Source of the DNA: Lysobacterales bacterium
Lineage (GTDB): Bacteria > Pseudomonadota > Gammaproteobacteria > Xanthomonadales > Xanthomonadaceae
DNA length: 64,000 nucleotides
Reading direction: 5' to 3'
NCBI GenBank assembly: GCA_017302135.1
Contig: JAFLDZ010000005.1
Span: 84,159-148,158, forward strand
A model generated the notes under the pieces. The model was not told the origin of the DNA and did no database searches. It worked only from the letters and a program-made list of their open reading frames with translations. Positions 4,832-22,293 of this stretch are shown piece after piece; within the stretch, counting starts at the first letter, position 1; each line of letters starts with the position of its first letter. Made by a program: the position numbers and the translations under genes.

Positions 4832-5377
4832 TTACGTGTTGAGTGTCGGGATTGCTTCGGCCTGCGTCGTTCGGGGGCAAAAGCCATCTCCAAGCCAGTC
4901 GATATGCGGGTGATCGGCGAGCGTGTCGGGCCGTGTCGCACGCATCCGCAGCCGCACCGGCGTCTCGCGCAGCCATAGCAGCGCGCCGGTCTGACCGAAC
5001 CGGCGGGCCAGCGCATCGAATGTCGATTCTCCGGGCTCGATGACCAGCCAGTTCTGCGCGCGCCAACTGCGATTGCGGCCGATGACGAAACCCGGTCGGT
5101 AACGCAAGCCGAGCTGATCCAGTGCCTGTTGCAGTTCGCGGTCTGCGGCCCGGTTATCCGCGTCGCTGCGTGCCACGTTGCCGGGATTGGACGCGCTGAG
5201 CATGCCGAAGCGTGTCGCGTCCGGGAATGTGGCGTCGAGCTCGCCAGCCTGCTTGCCGATCCGGATCGGCCACCATCGGCCGTCGATCTCCCACTTGAAC
5301 TCGGCTGCCGTATAGATGGCAGCCAGCGTGGCGAGATGGGAGATGGGCAGCGCTTCCTTTACGTCCTGATCCAACAA
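4832..5377 (-). CDS. DUF3293-like hypothetical protein (paralog A)
   Basis: 181-aa ORF with core [17 protein letters not shown]...[12 protein letters not shown]...[13 protein letters not shown]...[14 protein letters not shown]. This fits my memory of the DUF3293 pattern (xTAxNP ... N ... W.E.S.lv ... fgQ.A). The first codon is TTG and there is no upstream ATG, so the start is uncertain. Confidence 0.7.
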
Positions 5378-5469
5378 CTTGATTCACCGGGGTTATGGCT
5401 GGGCCCGGAATGGTAGGTGGGTGATATTGGAGCCACGGCTCGGATCGCGCTCCAGGGCTCGGCGTTCGT

Positions 5470-5958
5470 TCAGCCTCGCAGCCAGTCGATATCGGCGTGG
5501 TGCGCGAACGCGCGCGGTCGGGTCGCGTCCACCCTGAGCCTGACCGCCTCCCGTGCCGTCCAATGCAGCGTCGCCAGTTGCCCATAGCGGCGCGAAAGCG
5601 CGTCGAACTCGACCGGCGGCAGATCGATCACCAGCCAGCTGGGTTCGCGCCACGAGCGATTCACCGCCGACGAAAACGCGGGCTGGAATCTCCTCCCGCT
5701 GTCGATCAGGTCCCGCTGCAGCGCCTCGTCCGCAGCGCGATTGGCCGCTTCGGGGCGCTCGACGGAGTGGGGGTTCCAGGCGGACATCAGGCCGAACCGT
5801 GTGGCTTCGGGAAACCTGCGGGCAGCTTCGGGGACTCGTTCGCCGATGCGCAGATTCAACCAGTCGCCGTCCATCTCCCAGCGGTATTCCGCAGCGAGAT
5901 AGGCGCGCACCAGTTCGGCGATCCGGGCTTCGCCGGTGTACGGTGTGGACGATGGCAT
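5470..5958 (-). CDS. DUF3293-like hypothetical protein (paralog B)
   Basis: 162-aa ORF with an ATG start. It is collinear with paralog A: YLAAEYRWEMDGDWLNLRIGE...FPEATRFGLMSAWNPHS...NRAADEALQ...RSWREPSWLVIDL...LSRRYGQLATLHW. Confidence 0.8.
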   Translation of the reverse strand: MPSSTPYTGEARIAELVRAYLAAEYRWEMDGDWLNLRIGERVPEAARRFPEATRFGLMSAWNPHSVERPEAANRAADEALQRDLIDSGRRFQPAFSSAVNRSWREPSWLVIDLPPVEFDALSRRYGQLATLHWTAREAVRLRVDATRPRAFAHHADIDWLRG

Positions 5959-6067
5959 GGGTCAAGGTTTAACCCGGATGCGCGGCCCCGTAAACTCTGG
6001 CGCCCGCATGCGTCGCTGTGCTACACGCCATCGCGAACGACCTCGATCGACTTTCCCGGACCCCAGC

Positions 6068-7213
6068 ATGCCGCAGACCAAATTGCCCAAGGTGGGCACC
6101 ACCATCTTCACCGTGATGTCGCAATTGGCGGCCGAACACGGCGCCATCAATCTCGGCCAGGGGTTCCCCGACTTCCCTGTGCCGCAGCGGCTGGTCGATG
6201 AGCTGGACAAGGCGATGCGCGCCGGGCACAACCAGTATTCGATGATGACCGGCATCCCCGCGCTGCGTCGGGCCATCGCCGAGAAGACCGCGCGCGTCTA
6301 CGGCGTACTGCCCGATGCCGACCGCGAAATCACCGTCACCAGCGGCGCCACCGAGGCGATCTTCAACGCGATACACGCGGTGGTGAGCGCCGGCGAGGAA
6401 GTCATCGTCCTCGATCCCTGCTACGACTGCTACGAACCGGCGATCGATCTGGCCGGCGCGCGCGCGGTGCATATCCCGCTCGACCCGCAGACCTTCGCGC
6501 CCGACTGGCAGCGCGTGCGCGAGGCCATCGGTCCGAAGACGCGGATGCTGATGATCAACAGTCCGCACAATCCGTCCGGCGCGATGTTGACCGCCGACGA
6601 CATGGCGATCGTCGCCGAGCTGCTGCGCGACACCGGCATCTGGCTGCTGTCGGACGAGGTCTACGAGCACATCGTCTTCGATGGTGCGCGGCACGAGTCC
6701 GCGCTGCGTTACCCGGAACTGCGCGAACGTGCGTTCGTGATTTCCAGTTTCGGCAAGACCTATCACTGCACCGGTTGGAAAGTCGGCTACTGCATCGCGC
6801 CGCCCGCGTTGAGCGCGGAATTCCGCAAAGTGCATCAGTACAACGTGTTCTGCACTTTCCATCCGGCGCAGCACGCATTCGCGGCGATGATCGATGCCGA
6901 GCCCGAACACTACGAACAGTTGGGCGCGTTCTACCAGTCCAAGCGCGACCGTTTCCGCGAGCAGTTGCTGACGACGAAGCTCAAGCCGCTGCCGGTGCCG
7001 GGCGGCTATTTCCAACTGGTCGATTATTCGGCGATCAGCGACCTCGACGATGCCGCATTCTGCCGCTGGTTGACCGTCGAAAAAGGCGTCGCCGCGATTC
7101 CGCTGTCGCCGTTCTACGAAACGCCACCGGAAGGGCAGCGCCTCGCCCGGCTGTGCTTCGCGAAGAACGACAGCACGCTCGATGGTGCGATCGAACGTCT
7201 GCAGAGGCTTTGA
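6068..7213 (+). CDS. ybdL: PLP-dependent methionine/glutamine aminotransferase, YbdL-like
   Basis: Track ORF 5936..7213 trimmed to MPQTKLPKVGTTIFTVMSQLA (ATG 6068). It is collinear with E. coli YbdL as I remember it: INLGQGFPDF, NQYSMMTG, NSPHNPSG, PLP-lysine region SSFGKTYHCTGWKVGYC, and RLCFAK at the end. Confidence 0.9.
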   Translation: MPQTKLPKVGTTIFTVMSQLAAEHGAINLGQGFPDFPVPQRLVDELDKAMRAGHNQYSMMTGIPALRRAIAEKTARVYGVLPDADREITVTSGATEAIFNAIHAVVSAGEEVIVLDPCYDCYEPAIDLAGARAVHIPLDPQTFAPDWQRVREAIGPKTRMLMINSPHNPSGAMLTADDMAIVAELLRDTGIWLLSDEVYEHIVFDGARHESALRYPELRERAFVISSFGKTYHCTGWKVGYCIAPPALSAEFRKVHQYNVFCTFHPAQHAFAAMIDAEPEHYEQLGAFYQSKRDRFREQLLTTKLKPLPVPGGYFQLVDYSAISDLDDAAFCRWLTVEKGVAAIPLSPFYETPPEGQRLARLCFAKNDSTLDGAIERLQRL

Positions 7214-14490: not shown

Positions 14491-14792
14491 GCACGATCCC
14501 CGGGCAATTGCCGCGCGAACAGCGGGTGGAAGCGATCCGCAGCCGATTGCAGGCTGCGTTCACGCCGACCGAACTCGAAGTCATCGACGACAGTCACCGC
14601 CATGTCGGTCACGAAGGCGCAAAAGATGGTCGTGGCCACTACCGCGTGCGGGTAGTCAGCGCAATCTTCGCCGGGATGACCCCGGTCGCGCGGCACCGGG
14701 CGGTTTACGCGGCGCTGGACGACCTGATGCAGACGGACATCCATGCGCTGTCGATTCAAGCACTGCCTGAAACCCTTCAAGCCGCTCGCTGA
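14487..14792 (+). CDS. BolA family protein
   Basis: The GTG at 14487 overlaps the yciI TGA (GTGA). Sequence [43 protein letters not shown]...[35 protein letters not shown] is a typical BolA fold signature. Confidence 0.85.
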
Positions 14793-14835
14793 CGCACTGT
14801 CGATCGCACAGCCTCAGCGCGATCGATGAGCCGGT

Positions 14836-15330
14836 TCAGGGCGCCTGATCGTCGGGCATCATCAGCACCAGTGATGTGCAGCCTTTGGCCGCACATCCCC
14901 AACTGCGGGTCTTGTCGCCCGATTCCCAGGTGGCGGTCGCCGCCGCATTGATCCGGAACACCCAGTTCAGCCCCTCCGCCTGCAACTGGCCTTCGATCGT
15001 GCAGGGCAGGTCGTAGAACTGCGCATAGCGCTGCGGCGCTTCCTGCTCGGTGTATTCGCGACTGAGGGCGAAGAAGCGGGCGACCTGGGTCTTATCGAGT
15101 TTCCAATCGGTGCAGGCTTGCCTCAGGCTGACGTCCTCGCGTCGTCCGTCGGTGGGCGGCTCGTAGCGTGCTGCGCCGACCCGGGTCACGACGATGCCTG
15201 CTTCGGGCCTAACGCTGGTGTGGGGCGGGCTGCACGCTTGGAGCATCCACGACAGGAGCAGGAGGCTGCCACAGGCCACCACCTTCGCCGGGCGTCTTGT
15301 AGGAAATCTTGTCGTGCTGGTAGACATCAT
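14836..15330 (-). CDS. Cys-rich putative lipoprotein of unknown family (candidate immunity protein)
   Basis: Track ORF 14836..15363. The likely start is the ATG-ATG at 15330/15327, giving MMSTSTTRFPTRRPAKVVACGSLLLLSWMLQAC: a positive n-region, a hydrophobic core and an L-Q-A-C lipobox. The mature part has 5 further Cys. The start is uncertain; GTG at 15282 is an alternative. It overlaps the 3' end of the amidase gene. Confidence 0.6.
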   Translation of the reverse strand: MMSTSTTRFPTRRPAKVVACGSLLLLSWMLQACSPPHTSVRPEAGIVVTRVGAARYEPPTDGRREDVSLRQACTDWKLDKTQVARFFALSREYTEQEAPQRYAQFYDLPCTIEGQLQAEGLNWVFRINAAATATWESGDKTRSWGCAAKGCTSLVLMMPDDQAP

Positions 15331-16132
15331 TGTTTTCGAGCCCGTAAGTGGTTTGGAGCACACCGACCAGTTTGGCGATGGAGGCCTGCTGCTCCGGCGT
15401 GGGGGCGTCCCAGGTCTTGGTCGCTTCGTTGTAGCGGCCGACCACTTCGATGCCGACGCTGTCCTTGTTCATCGGAAAACGATCGGGGTAGTCCTTGGCT
15501 GCCTCGTGCTCATGCAGTTTCCCCGGCGCCCAACCCATGTCCTTGATGGTCTTGGCCTCTTCCGGCGTGCAGGTGCCTTCCTCCATGCAACGCGATTTGA
15601 TCTTGCCGACGTGCTGGGTCTTTTCGTCGAGGCTGGCGGTCTGATAGATCGTGCCGTCCTTGTCGATCAGGAAATGCGTGCCGGTTCCGCTCTTGAAGGC
15701 ATCGAGCGCGCTTTGCGCACTGGCACCCTCGGTGCGGTGCAGCACGACCGCATTGATCTGCGCGAGTTCGCCTTTTTCCAGCGCCGAGATCGTGTTCCGG
15801 GTGATCGCCGGATCGGTCAGGTAGCCGTCCTTGTCGACCGCCGGTGTCGGCGGCGGTACCGGCGTATCGCGCACCGTACTCTCGACATGCTTGGAGAACA
15901 TCGGCTCCTGGTCGCTGTTGGGCTTGTAGATCGCGAAGATCCTGGCGTCGTCGGCAGCCTGACCGGTGACGACGACCTGATCGACCCGTTTCATGACCGG
16001 ATCGTTGCTGACTTCCTTGAACAGGTGGTCGGCGATGTTCTTGCTCTGCTCGGGCGTCCAGCGCCCAGCGTCCTGAACGCCTTGCATGATCGCGGTATAT
16101 CGGGGGTCCTGCTGATCGGTGGGGTCGCCCAT
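15209..16132 (-). CDS. N-acetylmuramoyl-L-alanine amidase (Amidase_2/PGRP fold) with an N-terminal XVIPCD-like module and no signal peptide
   Basis: 307-aa ORF with AAGGA 8 nt upstream of ATG 16132. Amidase_2 pattern: INAVVLHRTEG...SALDAF...THFLIDKDGTIYQTASLDEKTQHVG...SVGIEVVG...PTPEQQASIAKLVGVLQTTYGL..VYQHDKISYKTPGEG. N-terminal residues about 9-95 (DPRYTAIMQGVQDAGRWTPEQSKNIADHLF...MKRVDQVVVTG...ARIFAIYKP...FSKHVESTVRDTP) resemble the XVIPCD consensus as I recall it. Confidence 0.8.
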   Translation of the reverse strand: MGDPTDQQDPRYTAIMQGVQDAGRWTPEQSKNIADHLFKEVSNDPVMKRVDQVVVTGQAADDARIFAIYKPNSDQEPMFSKHVESTVRDTPVPPPTPAVDKDGYLTDPAITRNTISALEKGELAQINAVVLHRTEGASAQSALDAFKSGTGTHFLIDKDGTIYQTASLDEKTQHVGKIKSRCMEEGTCTPEEAKTIKDMGWAPGKLHEHEAAKDYPDRFPMNKDSVGIEVVGRYNEATKTWDAPTPEQQASIAKLVGVLQTTYGLENNDVYQHDKISYKTPGEGGGLWQPPAPVVDAPSVQPAPHQR

Positions 16133-16508
16133 GGGTAGCTTTCCTTACTCGTCATCATGACGTTGAAGAGTGAAGTAACACGCGGGCCCTGCTGTTACAA
16201 GATTCGAGCGATGCGGCATCGGTGTGCCGGGATGCCTGCCCCACTCGTGGCCGGATCAATCCCGGGGTGTGATGCCGCAATGATTGCGAGAGCAAACGGT
16301 CGCTCTGCGCGCGGTGACTTTTTTGCGGTTGCCGATGCGCATCGGGTTGTACGACGACTTCCAGACGAGCAACCGGATTGCTGCGGCGCAGCATGATCCA
16401 GGCCGTTGAGGCGCTTTCTCGACCTGGATTATTTGTTTGAATTTCAATCGGTTGAGCGAGCTTTCGGGTCTGAAGCAGGATTCGTCACAAAACCTTTACA
16501 TCTTTTTC

Positions 16509-17712: not shown

Positions 17713-20700
17713 ATGAATCAACAACATCGTTCGACTGGTCGACAGACCACACTTCCTCAGCACCGGCGCCGGTTCGAGCGCAGCCTGCTGAGCTGCGCTC
17801 TGGTGAGCGCCCTGTTCTTTGCAGCGCCTGCGGCGTTCGCACAGTCGACCGGCGCCACCGTGCGCGGCCAGGTCGCCGCGGACGCCAGAGTGACTGCGAC
17901 CAATGTCGAAACCGGCTTCAGCCGAAGCGTCGAAGCCGGCGACAGCGGCAGTTATTCGCTGGTGGGCCTGCCGCCGGGCACCTATCGCGTCAGCGTGGAA
18001 GCCGGTGGCCAGACCACGGCCCGCGATGTGGTCCTGCGCGTCGGTGAAACCGTCACCCTCGACGGCGATGCGGTCACGCAGGCGCCCGAAAACGAACTCG
18101 ATACCGTCGTGATCACCGGCTCGGTGTTGACCGAGACCAAGACTTCGGAAGTCGGCGGCTATGTGAGCAAGCGTCAGATCGAATCGTTGCCGCAGAACTC
18201 GCGGAATTTTCTCGCGTTCGCCGACATCGTCCCCGGTGTCGTCTTCAATACCGGCGGCGATGGCTCCACCTCAGTTCGTAGCGGTGCGCAGTTGTCCAGC
18301 GGCATCAACGTTTTCATCGACGGTGTCGGGCAGAAAGACTACATCCTCAAAGGCGGCGTCACCGGCCAGGACTCAAGCCGCGGCAATCCGTTTCCGCAGC
18401 TCGGCATCGCCGAGTACAAAGTCATCACCTCGAACTACAAAGCGGAATACGACCAGCTGAGCAGCGCCGCGATTACGGCGGTCACCCAATCGGGCACCAA
18501 TGAATTCAAGGGCAGTTTCTTCTGGGACAGCGTGAGCGGCGGCGCGATCGCCAGAACCATCCGCGAAGACAAGGGCCTGGATAAAAAGCCCGACAGCAAG
18601 GATCTGCAATACGGCGTGTCGTTCGGCGGGCCGATCATCCAGGATCGGATGCATTTCTTCATCACTTACGAAGCGAAAGACCGCGACGATGCGCGGCAGA
18701 TCGATCCGGGCAGGAATCTCGAAATCGAAAATCTACCCGCGCAGTTCCGGGAAGAGGCTCGTAACACCACCAACGCACCGTTCCGGGAAGACCTGTACTT
18801 CGGCAAGATCGACTGGACGCCTGCGGACGACCATCTGATCGAATTGACGGTCAAGCGTCGCGAAGAGGACGAGTTGACCAACATCGGTGGCCAGAATCTG
18901 TCTTCCAGCGGCACGTTGAAGTTCGGTGAGGAAACACGCATAGATCTGCGTCATCAATACAGCGCCGCGAATTGGCTCAACGATGCGCACATCACGTTCG
19001 AAGACACCACCTTTGCGCCACGCACCGCATCGAACGAAAACGGCTATCTGTTGTTCATCCCGCGCGCTGGCGAAGAAGCCAACAACAATCCGGGCATGGA
19101 CCAGATCATCCGCAGGGGCGGCGGCGGCGATTATCAGGACAAAGGGCAAAAAGGCTACTCCCTGCAGAACGATTTTTCGTTCTACGGCTGGGAAGGTCAC
19201 ACGGTCAAAGCCGGCATCAAGTACAAGCTCATCGATATCAGCGCCTTCGAGCAGAGTCCGTATTCTCCGCAGTTCCGCTACGACGGCCTGCGCAGTCTCA
19301 CGGTGCCGTACTTCGTGCAGTTCTCGGCTTCCGGAAACGGCTATCCGACGTCCGTCGAGTCGAGCAGCAAGCAGTTCGGCATCTATCTGCAGGACGATTG
19401 GGCGATTACCGATCGTTTGACGCTCAATATGGGGCTTCGCTGGGATTACGAAAGCACGCCGAGTTACGAGGATCACGTCACTCCCGCGGGTTTGGTGAGC
19501 GCGCTGCAGGCATGGCCCAACATCAACAACGCCAATGTCGACTACGATTACAACGACTACATCAGCAATGGCAATAATCGCAGTGCATTCGAGGGCGCCT
19601 GGCAGCCGCGGCTGGGTTTCTCCTACGATCTCACCGGCGACGAACGTCATGTGATCTTCGGCGGCGCGGGCCGTTCCTACAATCGCAACCAGTTCGACTA
19701 CCTGTCGTACGAGAAGTACCGTCTCGCGTTCCAGCGCTACGAATTGAACTTCAATACGCCCGGTCACACCTGTGTCGTTGGACCGACCTGCTTCAACTGG
19801 GATCCAAGCTATGCCGATCCGGATAATCTGGCGGCGCTTGTTGCGGGCACGTCCAACGGCGCCGAAGTGTTTCTGATCAACAACGACCTGAAGACACCGT
19901 ATTCCGACCAGTTCAGTATCGGCATGCGCAATGCTTTCGAGTTGTTCGGCCACGATTGGAATTCATCGGTCACGCTGATGCATGTGCGCAGCCACGATGG
20001 GATTCTGTTCACGATGGGAAATCGCTATCCCAACGGTGAGTTCCGCAACAATCCGGCACTGGATTGGGGTGGTCAGCCATGGGGCGAATCGCTGCCGGGA
20101 TGGGGCCGTTTCTTCCTCGGCGACAATGCGGTCGAAACCCGCTTGAATTCCCTGCTGCTGTCGTTGGACAAGCCCTACACGCGCGAATCTCACTGGGGCG
20201 TGAGCTTGGCTTACACGTACAGCGATGCGGAAGAAAATCGCAGCAATTCCGATCAATTCTCCTTCGACTACCCGAACCTGGATGGGGTTGCGTTCACGGA
20301 TGCGCTGGGCGTCTCGAAGCATCGCCTGGTGGCGACCGGCATCGCCGATTTCTGGGGAATGACCGCCTCGGCAAAGCTCACCTTGACCAGCCCAAGATCC
20401 GTCGAAGCGATCAACTGTTACGAGGTGACTGCTCCGGGCAACTGCTATTTCGATCCGTTCCGCCCGGATGGCACGCTCGCCTACAAACAACTCGATCTTT
20501 CCCTGCAAAAAGAGTGGGATACCGGAACCAATATCAAGTTCCGCGTTCGCGGCGATCTCATCAATGCGTTCAATTGGCGCAATTACGGCGCTGGTGAATA
20601 TTCCAACTGGCGCGGTTGGGACGGTGGCGCCGACCCGAACTTCGGCCGACGCACGGGCGATGGCATCGAGCGTCCGACGCGGACCTTCAAGTTGTCGGTC

Positions 20701-20715
20701 GGTTTCATCTGGTAA
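17713..20715 (+). CDS. TonB-dependent outer-membrane receptor (carbohydrate-type, with an N-terminal carboxypeptidase-regulatory-like domain)
   Basis: 1000-aa ORF with GGGAGGGG upstream. Signal peptide ...LFFAAPAAFAQS; STGATVRGQV...GSYSLVGLPPGTYRVSV; plug region; beta-barrel ending in the aromatic residue ...FKLSVGFIW. Confidence 0.9.
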   Translation: MNQQHRSTGRQTTLPQHRRRFERSLLSCALVSALFFAAPAAFAQSTGATVRGQVAADARVTATNVETGFSRSVEAGDSGSYSLVGLPPGTYRVSVEAGGQTTARDVVLRVGETVTLDGDAVTQAPENELDTVVITGSVLTETKTSEVGGYVSKRQIESLPQNSRNFLAFADIVPGVVFNTGGDGSTSVRSGAQLSSGINVFIDGVGQKDYILKGGVTGQDSSRGNPFPQLGIAEYKVITSNYKAEYDQLSSAAITAVTQSGTNEFKGSFFWDSVSGGAIARTIREDKGLDKKPDSKDLQYGVSFGGPIIQDRMHFFITYEAKDRDDARQIDPGRNLEIENLPAQFREEARNTTNAPFREDLYFGKIDWTPADDHLIELTVKRREEDELTNIGGQNLSSSGTLKFGEETRIDLRHQYSAANWLNDAHITFEDTTFAPRTASNENGYLLFIPRAGEEANNNPGMDQIIRRGGGGDYQDKGQKGYSLQNDFSFYGWEGHTVKAGIKYKLIDISAFEQSPYSPQFRYDGLRSLTVPYFVQFSASGNGYPTSVESSSKQFGIYLQDDWAITDRLTLNMGLRWDYESTPSYEDHVTPAGLVSALQAWPNINNANVDYDYNDYISNGNNRSAFEGAWQPRLGFSYDLTGDERHVIFGGAGRSYNRNQFDYLSYEKYRLAFQRYELNFNTPGHTCVVGPTCFNWDPSYADPDNLAALVAGTSNGAEVFLINNDLKTPYSDQFSIGMRNAFELFGHDWNSSVTLMHVRSHDGILFTMGNRYPNGEFRNNPALDWGGQPWGESLPGWGRFFLGDNAVETRLNSLLLSLDKPYTRESHWGVSLAYTYSDAEENRSNSDQFSFDYPNLDGVAFTDALGVSKHRLVATGIADFWGMTASAKLTLTSPRSVEAINCYEVTAPGNCYFDPFRPDGTLAYKQLDLSLQKEWDTGTNIKFRVRGDLINAFNWRNYGAGEYSNWRGWDGGADPNFGRRTGDGIERPTRTFKLSVGFIW

Positions 20716-20766
20716 CAGTGTCGTGCGGCTGCCCGAGGCAATCGGGCGGCCGCTGTCTTCCCATCG

Positions 20767-22293
20767 ATGCAGGAGTTCCGTTTGAGCCATCCGATATTCC
20801 GTATCGCCACGATGGCGGCGCTGTCGCTCTCCCTCGCATTACTCGCCGCTTGCCGCGATTCCCCCGAAGCGGCGGTGGTGAAGCCGGAAATCGATCCGCC
20901 GTCCACACCCGTGGCTGGCGCGCCGCTGCCACCGCTGTTCGACGACATCGAACGGCGGACGTTCGATTTCTTCTGGGAAACCACCAACGAGGAGAATGGT
21001 CTCGCGCCGGATCGTCATCCGTCGCGGCCGTTTTCCAGCATCGCCGCGGTTGGTTTTGCGCTCACGGCCTATCCGATCGGCGTCGAGCGCGACTGGATCA
21101 CCCGCGAGCAGGCGGCGACGCGGACGCTGACGACGCTGCGTTTCCTGCGCGATGCGCCGACCGGTCCTGAAGCGAAAGGCCGCTCCGGCTATCGCGGGTT
21201 CTACTACCATTTCCTCGATATGCGCAGCGGCCAGCGCTTCGATTCCTGGGTGGAACTGTCGAGCGTGGACACCGGCCTGCTGATGATGGGCGTGCTGTTC
21301 GCGCAGAGTTTCTACGACGCCGACAACGACGCCGAGCGCGAGATCCGTGCGATCGCCGAGGATTTGTATCGCCGCGTCGAATGGAGCTGGATGCAGGCCC
21401 GTCCGCCGTTGATTTCGATGGGTTGGATGCCGGAGAAGCAGTCTTTCATCACCCACGATTGGAAGGGTTACAACGAAGCCATGCTGGTGTATGTGCTGGC
21501 GCTGGGTTCGCCCACGCATCCGGTCGGGCCGGAGGCCTGGCAGGCGTGGACGCGCACCTACGACCGCAATTGGGGAGAATTCCAGGGGCAGACGCATCTG
21601 CGCTTCGCGCCGCAGTTCGGCCATCAGTACAGTCATGTCTGGATCGACTTTCGCGGTATCCACGATGCATACATGCGCGATAAACGCCCGCGTGACGAGG
21701 GTCTGGATTATTTCGAGAACAGTCGCCGCGCCACGCTCGCGCAGCACGCCTACGCGGTCGCCAATCCGATGGGCTGGAAAGGTTACGACGACAAGGTCTG
21801 GGGCTTGACCGCCAGCGACGGGCCGCAGACCACGAAGCAGGTTTATCGCGGCGAACAGCGCGAATTCCGCAACTACAGTGCGCGCGGCCCGGGGCCGATC
21901 GACGGCTTCGATGACGGCACGTTGGCGCCGACCGCAGCGTTGGCGTCGCTGCCATTCGCACCCGAACTGGTGGTGCCGACGGCGGAAGCGATGCGTGCGC
22001 GGTATGGCGATGATCTCTACGGACGTTACGGCTTTATCGACGCGTTCAATCCGAGTTTCGAATATCCGGTGCCGCTGGTGACCGGCAAGGTCGTACCGGG
22101 TAAAGGCTGGTTCGCCAGCGACTATCTGGGGATCGATCAGGGGCCGATTCTCGCAATGATCGCGAATCACCGCGATGGCTTCGTCTGGAACGTGATGAAG
22201 CGCAATCCGCATATCCGTCGCGGGCTCGAGCGCGCGGGGTTCGAGGGCGGATGGCTCGCTACACCATCGCCACCACCCGCAGCGACGCGGTAA
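20767..22293 (+). CDS. Glucoamylase-like (alpha/alpha)6 protein, GH144-like putative endo-beta-1,2-glucanase; predicted lipoprotein
   Basis: 508-aa ORF with lipobox LALLAAC. Motifs I associate with the PF10091/GH144 family: FDFFWETTNEENGLAPDR, VGFALTAYPIGVERDWITR, YRGFYYHFLDM, SSVDTGLLMMGVLF, GYNEAMLVYVLALGSPTHP, QYSHVWIDFRGI, YFENSRRATLAQ, WGLTASDGP, YGFIDAFNP, DYLGIDQGPILAMI. Confidence 0.8.
   Translation: MQEFRLSHPIFRIATMAALSLSLALLAACRDSPEAAVVKPEIDPPSTPVAGAPLPPLFDDIERRTFDFFWETTNEENGLAPDRHPSRPFSSIAAVGFALTAYPIGVERDWITREQAATRTLTTLRFLRDAPTGPEAKGRSGYRGFYYHFLDMRSGQRFDSWVELSSVDTGLLMMGVLFAQSFYDADNDAEREIRAIAEDLYRRVEWSWMQARPPLISMGWMPEKQSFITHDWKGYNEAMLVYVLALGSPTHPVGPEAWQAWTRTYDRNWGEFQGQTHLRFAPQFGHQYSHVWIDFRGIHDAYMRDKRPRDEGLDYFENSRRATLAQHAYAVANPMGWKGYDDKVWGLTASDGPQTTKQVYRGEQREFRNYSARGPGPIDGFDDGTLAPTAALASLPFAPELVVPTAEAMRARYGDDLYGRYGFIDAFNPSFEYPVPLVTGKVVPGKGWFASDYLGIDQGPILAMIANHRDGFVWNVMKRNPHIRRGLERAGFEGGWLATPSPPPAATR

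Follow-up and report, generated by a model that had tools for sequence, protein, structure and literature searches.

A probable Amidase_2 toxin-immunity pair from a Lysobacterales bacterium with a putative XVIPCD core at the N-terminus of the effector

Results

The amidase gene and the overlapping lipoprotein gene

A 64,000-nt stretch of the Lysobacterales bacterium assembly GCA_017302135.1 (contig JAFLDZ010000005.1, positions 84,159 to 148,158; the whole stretch is referred to here as the window) carries two overlapping genes on the reverse strand, which encode a 307-aa protein with an Amidase_2 domain and a 164-aa putative lipoprotein. We consider these two genes a probable effector-immunity pair of the type IV secretion system (T4SS) that Xanthomonadales use to kill bacteria (X-T4SS), whose effectors and immunity proteins are called X-Tfe and X-Tfi, in which the XVIPCD secretion domain of the effector stands in front of the toxin domain. 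The features of the locus, in window coordinates, are as follows.

15209..16132, reverse strand: effector (amidase) gene, 307 aa, composed of XVIPCD core, Pro-rich linker, Amidase_2 domain and C-terminal tail; stop codon at 15209-15211
15863..16123, reverse strand: putative XVIPCD core, residues ~4-90, of ααβββ order (helices 10-22 and 27-42, strands 52-56, 64-69 and 79-84)
15305..15763, reverse strand: Amidase_2, a PGRP-type zinc amidase domain, Pfam residues 124-276
15212..15280, reverse strand: C-terminal tail, disordered, at residues 285-307 (GGLWQPPAPVVDAPSVQPAPHQR), which may form the other half of the secretion signal
14836..15330, reverse strand: immunity gene in its full lipoprotein form, 164 aa, with a presumed ATGATG start (15330/15327) and stop codon at 14836-14838
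15235..15330, reverse strand: immunity signal peptide, with n-region MMSTSTTRFPTRRPAK and h-region VVACGSLLLLSWM running into the lipobox L-Q-A
15232..15234, reverse strand: codon of the lipobox Cys33 (L-Q-A-C), ~8 codons before the amidase stop
14839..15231, reverse strand: mature immunity domain with conserved C73, C110, C146 and C151, predicted mixed α/β fold
15209..15330, reverse strand: stretch shared out of frame by the effector gene (at its 3' end) and the immunity gene (at its 5' end), 122 nt when counted from the ATGATG at 15330/15327
16142..16146, reverse strand: AAGGA, a candidate Shine-Dalgarno-like element 9 nt 5' of the amidase ATG

The start of the amidase gene was unambiguous, as a stop codon lies 4 codons 5' of the ATG. 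An earlier note on this DNA, made from the letters alone, had described a signal-less Amidase_2 protein of 307 aa and this description was borne out. The open reading frame (ORF) contained all of the motifs quoted (VVLHRTEG, THFLIDKDGTIYQ, GIEVVG and YQHDKISYKTPGEG), Pfam matched PF01510 to the protein with an E-value of 2.4e-19 (70.4 bits, cutoff 26), and the N-terminus, MGDPTDQQDPRYTAIMQGVQDAGRW…, reads as hydrophilic with no hydrophobic segment, that is, with no Sec, Tat or lipoprotein signal. The AlphaFold2 (AF2) model had a predicted local distance difference test score (pLDDT) of 91 and was matched by Foldseek to AmpD, LysCS, PGRP and T7 lysozyme (probability 1.0 in each case); a phmmer search of the PDB with the whole amidase gave no significant match. 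Across 70 homologs H132, H153, E210, E229, H273 and K279 were invariant and E283 and D274 nearly so, and by analogy with T7 lysozyme and AmpD H132, E229, H273, K279, E283 and D274 are candidate zinc ligands and catalytic residues. The effector is a predicted zinc N-acetylmuramoyl-L-alanine amidase, which would cleave the MurNAc-L-Ala amide bond.

An AmpD-type housekeeping role was set aside for this enzyme; it scored 25.6 bits with the NCBIfam AmpD equivalog NF008758, far under the cutoff of 143, and is not a member. Relative to solved Amidase_2 structures the protein has an insertion of ~45 residues at approximately residues 176-222 (nt ~15467-15607), in which a conserved Cys pair, SRCxEEGTC (CxxxxxC), is replaced by SRGEVEGT in some relatives. 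Inside the periplasm of a target cell these two Cys may become disulfide-linked.

The immunity gene lies in an open frame (14836..15363, reverse strand) that reads …RRPAKVVACGSLLLLSWMLQAC and continues into the Cys-containing domain. What the earlier note said of the next gene stood in so far as it has a lipoprotein-type signal and a Cys domain belonging to no known family; it is not simply downstream, however, since its signal is encoded inside the amidase ORF. The Gln at position -2 of the lipobox is atypical. Segments equivalent to the n-region, h-region and lipobox of the window were present at other loci, and in an alignment of 57 sequences C33 was nearly invariant. The mature domain is marked by the motif LPCTIxGQLxAEG…INAAATATW…GC…C…LVLMMPD and was modelled by AF2 with pLDDT >90 at residues 50-160, and the protein had no Pfam or NCBIfam family, no sequence relative in the PDB and no Foldseek match at E<=0.001. 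Its homologs formed 136 clusters, none of them with a Pfam family; those that carried a name were called 'hypothetical protein', with a single UniRef entry called 'Lipoprotein'. As in X-Tfi proteins, the gene adjoins that of the effector and encodes a signal peptide with a lipobox. The product would be a disulfide-bonded periplasmic lipoprotein that binds and blocks the amidase.

A GTG at 15189, with an AGG-containing stretch ~7 nt 5' of it (15187-15201), would give a signal-less form of 117 aa, which is the form that gene callers annotate. A 2019 review has speculated that X-Tfis may be produced in two forms, a lipoprotein and a cytosolic isoform (PMC6536674).

The out-of-frame overlap

If translation of the immunity gene begins at an alternative GTG at 15282 and not at the ATGATG, the overlap is still at least 74 nt long. 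Among loci where the amidase carries the N-terminal XVIPCD (N-XVIPCD loci), 23 could be scored, and in each of them the lipobox Cys lay 7-10 codons ahead of the amidase stop; 22 of these had an identifiable upstream ATG giving an overlap of 114-141 nt. The overlap is conserved across orders, at 114-141 nt in Xanthomonadales loci and at a shorter length in Enterobacterales. The immunity n-region, M[ST]T[NS]TTRFPT[RK]..AK, results when the conserved amidase motif D[VI]YxHDxISYKTxGEG is read in the alternative frame. Codon resampling was used to ask whether an ATG has been selected in the overlapping frame. Of the high-GC loci, 24 of 24 had one, against 17.9 expected; this is a weakly positive result, because the amidase motif itself readily creates an ATG, and for this reason we give the immunity start as presumed. 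Even so, any functional signal peptide has to start within the amidase ORF. Annotators consequently truncate the immunity gene, and the annotated protein has 117 aa here and 110-150 aa elsewhere, with no signal peptide.

Homologs, pairing and distribution

The earlier note had proposed an effector-immunity pairing, and the distribution of homologs agreed with it. There were 304 amidase homologs. The first comparison took in 81 sequences (the window and 80 genome loci), and in 51 of these tblastn placed the immunity gene directly 3' of the amidase gene. These 51 pairs take in Xenorhabdus, Budvicia, Intestinirhabdus, Gilliamella and Archangium, with amidases that have no XVIPCD, so that amidase and immunity protein co-occur across Xanthomonadales, Enterobacterales and Myxococcota. 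Among N-XVIPCD loci the immunity gene was adjacent in 28 of 29. The exception, L002, is a relative from a metagenome-assembled genome (MAG) (69% identity), in which positions 5142-6816 hold an N-XVIPCD amidase gene with a remnant of the signal frame (TSTTRFPTRPPVKVQACG…) and no immunity gene. On the opposite strand there is an ORF with the motif DPIGLGGGLSTYGYANANASPMAYSDPEGL, which may resemble an Rhs-type repeat; the locus may hold an effector left without its partner, or it may be a chimera produced in assembly.

One homolog, Salmonella enterica P0105, is encoded directly after VgrG in a type VI secretion system (T6SS) cluster and is followed by an overlapping gene of 143 aa. The cassette is thus tied to two contact-dependent weapons, which supports an antibacterial reading. 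A survey of effectors of Salmonella pathogenicity island 6 (SPI-6) contained no confident match to the VgrG-linked Amidase_2 gene.

Amidases with the N-terminal XVIPCD were found only in Xanthomonadales, in Lysobacter, Stenotrophomonas, Pseudoxanthomonas, Luteimonas and Dyella. The published list of X-T4SS carriers includes two that have such amidases, Lysobacter sp. cf310 and L. enzymogenes (PMC6536674, Table 1). The window amidase was 98% identical to the representative (P0001) of a 23-member cluster, its exact sequence recurred on contigs from several different samples, and the best match among species representatives was a Lysobacteraceae MAG at 89% identity.

Some loci had more than a single pair. 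Two N-XVIPCD amidase-immunity pairs were located ~36 kb apart on one Luteimonas terricola scaffold (L040 and L043), indicating that the family can be duplicated within a genome. At four loci (L025, L034, L048 and L076) two to three tandem tblastn immunity matches lay 3' of a single amidase gene, which suggests arrays of immunity paralogs. In P. winnipegensis (L084/L085, 18180-19525) a second PF20410 protein, of 308 aa, was encoded 8 kb from the N-XVIPCD amidase and was preceded by a DUF6393 protein; these two are probably another effector-immunity pair. Between the two XVIPCD genes of this organism there were a SIR2_2 / ParA-like pair and an Mrr_cat gene.

The N-terminal XVIPCD core

Several comparisons related the N-terminal domain to the XVIPCD. 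In full-length homologs with 45-55% identity to the window amidase, from L. enzymogenes, Pseudoxanthomonas winnipegensis and metagenomes, PF20410 was matched at residues ~9-114, before Amidase_2, with 30-40 bits against a cutoff of 24.9, and 34 of the 70 aligned members of the amidase family were matched in this way. A profile built solely from 119 C-terminal XVIPCDs, run on all 515 six-frame ORFs of the window, found residues 4-90 of the amidase with 80.7 bits (E 1.8e-24), the second-best ORF having an E-value of 0.76. In the reverse direction, the N-terminal profile of the amidase family matched residues 307-412 of the 444-aa PDB chain 9p3h_A (E 6.6e-8).

The AF2 model of the N-domain has the ααβββ order, and apart from Amidase_2 structures the only confident Foldseek matches of the AF2 model were 7r6s (E 1.8e-3) and 7mu9 (E 8.3e-3, probability 1.0). 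The former is TfcB of S. maltophilia, where the XVIPCD is the C-terminal domain (residues 210-316), and the latter is the XVIPCD of XAC2609, solved by nuclear magnetic resonance (NMR). In XAC2609 the positions reported as important for killing and for binding to VirD4 are D363, F375/V377 and D383/P384 (PMC8740702). When mapped by eye via 9p3h and the profile alignments, their window counterparts were D51, F66/I68 and D74/P77, which are kept in the core within VDQVV (D51), IFAI (F66, I68) and SDQEP (D74, P77). The identification of the amidase N-terminus as an XVIPCD is supported by these results, and we propose that the domain would dock on the all-alpha domain of VirD4.

Position of the XVIPCD in a protein census

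A census of domain position was made by running the N-domain profile against 1.84 billion representative proteins, which gave 172 matches at E<=1e-3, and re-scoring 148 of those listed. In 119 of the 148 the XVIPCD lay a median 31 residues from the C-terminus, the classical X-Tfe layout, and 20 were short proteins that consisted of scarcely more than the XVIPCD. A Pfam scan of the N-terminal class found four Amidase_2 proteins and one triple-XVIPCD protein; four further proteins were outside all position classes and two of them (972 aa and 1386 aa) look spurious. The amidase-family members P0046 and P0013 likewise had the domain at the N-terminus. In the window protein the domain is at ~4-90 of 307 residues with the toxin after it, not C-terminal with the toxin before it as in X-Tfes, and the amidase family supplied the sole toxin-bearing proteins with an N-terminal XVIPCD in this census. 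The architecture had been called unusual in the earlier note, and the census confirmed it.

The 433-aa protein P0366, from the representative set, has three tandem XVIPCD repeats (PF20410, 120 bits, three stretches) and no recognisable toxin domain.

A C-terminal position of the XVIPCD was a criterion for listing X-T4SS species in the 2019 review (PMC6536674). The phrase 'N-terminal XVIPCD' was absent from the searchable literature, in which the XVIPCD papers found describe the domain as C-terminal, and those inspected describe neither an architecture with the domain in front nor a characterised Amidase_2 X-Tfe. A figure legend of the 2019 review does name 'Amidase (PF01510)' among X-Tfe domains (PMC6536674).

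The C-terminal tail

The XVIPCD has been described as a two-part signal, with a folded core that binds VirD4 and a disordered tail besides, the last six residues of which contain Arg and are free of acidic side chains, with Pro, Ala, Gly, Ser, Met and Leu abundant among them; removal of the final 20 residues abolished killing and left VirD4 binding unaffected (PMC8740702). The window amidase ends in …QPAPHQR, with Arg as its last residue and no acidic residue among the last six, and AF2 gave pLDDT <50 at residues 296-303. It therefore has the disordered, Arg-bearing, acid-free C-terminus of an X-Tfe. Of the N-XVIPCD amidases, 48 of 49 had a tail of 21-28 residues that ends in Arg and whose last six residues include neither Asp nor Glu; most often it closes with …[QS]PxGPxR. 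The same tail occurred in none of the 58 full-length homologs without the N-domain; two apparent exceptions were N-terminally truncated fragments of the N-XVIPCD amidase family. For comparison, 115 of the 119 classical XVIPCD proteins lacked acidic residues in the last six, and GPR or GPK was recurrent among the tails inspected.

The last ~8 residues of the tail overlap the unconstrained tether of the lipoprotein. Xanthomonadales homologs that have the same overlap geometry and no N-domain end in …MPWQRGTHP or …RFPPPFF, from which it follows that the GPxR ending tracks the XVIPCD and not the overlap. Since the tail is restricted to N-XVIPCD amidases, the signal looks split around the toxin. 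We consider the chances about even that the XVIPCD signal is naturally split here, with its core N-terminal and its Arg-ended tail C-terminal ~200 residues away, the toxin between them and overprinting as the cause of the arrangement.

Genomic context

YciI, BolA, ScpA and ScpB genes lie to one side of the pair; to the other lie genes for a LacI regulator, for a TonB-dependent receptor and for sugar uptake. At two loci with the identical amidase (L087, 2667-5852; L091, 35-2253) a DDE transposase, helix-turn-helix and SHOCT proteins and small ORFs lie between the LacI gene and the amidase gene, so the upstream side of the pair is a variable spot. Within the window, GC content falls to 0.57-0.60 at 18001-21000, compared with ~0.65 elsewhere; this drop lies over the gene of the TonB-dependent receptor (17713-20715), which adjoins the LacI regulator. 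A promoter and terminator scan of 14600-16500 found no promoter-like site on either strand and two terminator-like sites on the forward strand, opposite to the operon.

Discussion

We regard it as probable that this locus encodes an X-Tfe/X-Tfi-type pair, with an Amidase_2 toxin, an N-terminal XVIPCD core and a tail signal at the far C-terminus; that the two genes are a toxin-immunity pair of some kind we hold more firmly. In the model proposed the amidase, having no export signal, would stay in the cytoplasm of the producer until its N-terminal ααβββ core docks on the coupling ATPase VirD4, at the all-alpha domain. The tail ending in …QPAPHQR would supply the positively charged, acid-free terminal signal that classical effectors need for translocation and carry immediately after the XVIPCD core. 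Once delivered, the amidase would strip peptide stems from the peptidoglycan in the periplasm of the target cell, and any amidase that reached the periplasm of the producer itself would be bound and blocked by the lipoprotein. As the 3' end of the amidase gene is locked by its overlap with the signal-peptide region of the immunity gene, a delivery domain could presumably be added only at the 5' end of the cassette. Whether the split signal is functional we judge to be an evenly balanced matter.

A number of points weigh against this model. PF20410 itself did not match the window amidase in Pfam, even at E<=10; the resemblance to the XVIPCD suggested in the earlier note thus failed the direct check and was upheld by the PF20410 matches of the homologs, the profile of C-terminal domains, 9p3h and the AF2/Foldseek comparison. 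We did not take the miss as a refutation because the profile and structure tests were positive and PF20410 is insensitive for the clade of the window. In this clade the HPD motif is lost and VDHVV reads VDQVV. The 119 C-terminal XVIPCDs behind the profile were fetched with the N-terminal profile of the amidase family and are biased to similar subtypes. The amidase tail contains 9% Gln, compared with 28% in classical proteins, and has no long Gln-rich stretch. It is also co-encoded with the immunity signal peptide, which leaves only the last ~8 residues free to act as a signal, and the abundance of Ala, Pro and Val in its middle is probably a side effect of the other frame encoding the Leu-rich h-region. 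There were no virB/virD4 genes and no other XVIPCD proteins in the 64-kb window, an absence that is uninformative as regards the T4SS because X-Tfe genes as a rule lie dispersed, at a distance from the vir locus (PMC6536674). The searchable literature contained no experiment on any member of the amidase family.

This absence of T4SS genes and of a second XVIPCD protein is what one would look for if the pair were a stranded relic, a former X-T4SS module in a lineage without the system, its amidase no longer delivered, that is kept mainly for its immunity gene or by addiction, and the divergence of the window-clade XVIPCD below Pfam detection and the lack of an immunity gene in the relative L002 point the same way. 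We think this unlikely, given that both ORFs are intact, that the amidase is 98% identical to P0001 and recurs as an exact sequence on contigs from several different samples, and that catalytic residues, contact positions of the XVIPCD and a tail of GPxR type have all been kept; absence over 64 kb says little in view of the usual distance of X-Tfe genes from the vir locus (PMC6536674). Delivery by another machine such as the T6SS, with the N-domain serving as an adaptor or anchor and not as a VirD4 signal, would agree with the VgrG-adjacent cassette in the Salmonella T6SS cluster and with the many homologs that have other short N-termini. It is set against the homology of the N-domain, in sequence and structure, to the XVIPCD, for which VirD4 binding is the sole known role (PMC8740702), and against the strict co-occurrence of this domain with the T4SS-type Arg-ended tail. 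Neither the characterised neighbours in the window nor the called genes around the P. winnipegensis homolog included Hcp, VgrG or PAAR, and we find such delivery here quite improbable.

We give less credence still to a role on the cell's own wall and not as an interbacterial weapon, which we regard as very improbable; the amidase would then be an autolysin or serve recycling as AmpD does, and the lipoprotein would regulate it. The weak NCBIfam AmpD match (25.6 bits against 143), the presence of AmpD among the best fold matches and the housekeeping neighbours ScpA/B, BolA and YciI could be cited for it. That AmpD score is far under the equivalog cutoff, however, and a cytoplasmic recycling enzyme needs no overlap-encoded, Cys-rich periplasmic lipoprotein as partner. 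The distribution of the family is patchy and island-like, with an insertion sequence element beside the pair in some strains, and the T6SS linkage elsewhere and the presence of the XVIPCD also argue against it.

If the X-Tfe/X-Tfi model with a split signal is true, docking on VirD4 would be independent of position while the tail signal would be necessarily terminal. A docking core and a translocation tail at opposite ends of the cargo would constitute a natural test of the independence of the two signals, and the family bears on the position of the docking domain and on the orientation in which a substrate enters the channel. Screens for C-terminal XVIPCDs, or screens made via PF20410, miss these effectors, and gene callers systematically truncate the immunity gene, which is then annotated as a signal-less hypothetical protein. 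One toxin-immunity cassette that serves the T6SS in Enterobacterales and apparently a T4SS in Xanthomonadales would represent an exchange of cassettes between systems.

Comparison with known systems

The pair resembles X-Tfe/X-Tfi systems (XAC2609/XAC2610 of X. citri; TfcB) in that a signal-less peptidoglycan hydrolase with a ααβββ XVIPCD, confined to Xanthomonadales, has a disordered, Arg-bearing and acid-free C-terminus and is bicistronic with a putative periplasmic lipoprotein immunity protein. It differs in having the core at the N-terminus, with a toxin of ~200 residues between core and tail, and in a toxin that is Amidase_2 and not GH19 or lysozyme-like. It also lacks a long Gln-rich stretch, its immunity protein has a fold unrelated to that of XAC2610 (no PDB match), and the genes here overlap by ~120 nt.

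With AmpD, AmpDh2, T7 lysozyme, the phage endolysins LysCS and PlyL, and animal PGRPs the amidase shares the fold, the His/His/Lys/acid residues and the predicted reaction. Compared with solved Amidase_2 proteins it is distant in sequence (the best PDB profile match was T7 lysozyme, E 8e-5), contains the ~45-residue insertion, is fused to a putative secretion domain and is paired with a putative inhibitor.

Salmonella enterica P0105 has an orthologous toxin (44-53% identity in the catalytic region), an orthologous immunity protein and the out-of-frame overlap; homologs of this type are also found in E. coli, Xenorhabdus, Budvicia and Intestinirhabdus. P0105 differs by a short unrelated N-terminus, by the lack of an XVIPCD and of an Arg-ended tail, and by its T6SS-associated locus. 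In Xenorhabdus, Budvicia and Intestinirhabdus the overlapping ORF has a hydrophobic, signal-like N-terminus and no lipobox Cys.

The T6SS effectors Tae1-4 with their Tsi partners also combine a peptidoglycan amidase that acts in the periplasm with a periplasmic immunity protein. These Tae effectors are cysteine peptidases of NlpC/P60 or CHAP type, whose cut lies within the peptide stem; they differ from the window amidase in fold, chemistry and secretion system. Set beside these systems, the amidase toxin and its immunity partner are ordinary in kind; it is the secretion tag placed in front, with its tail at the far end, that is unusual.

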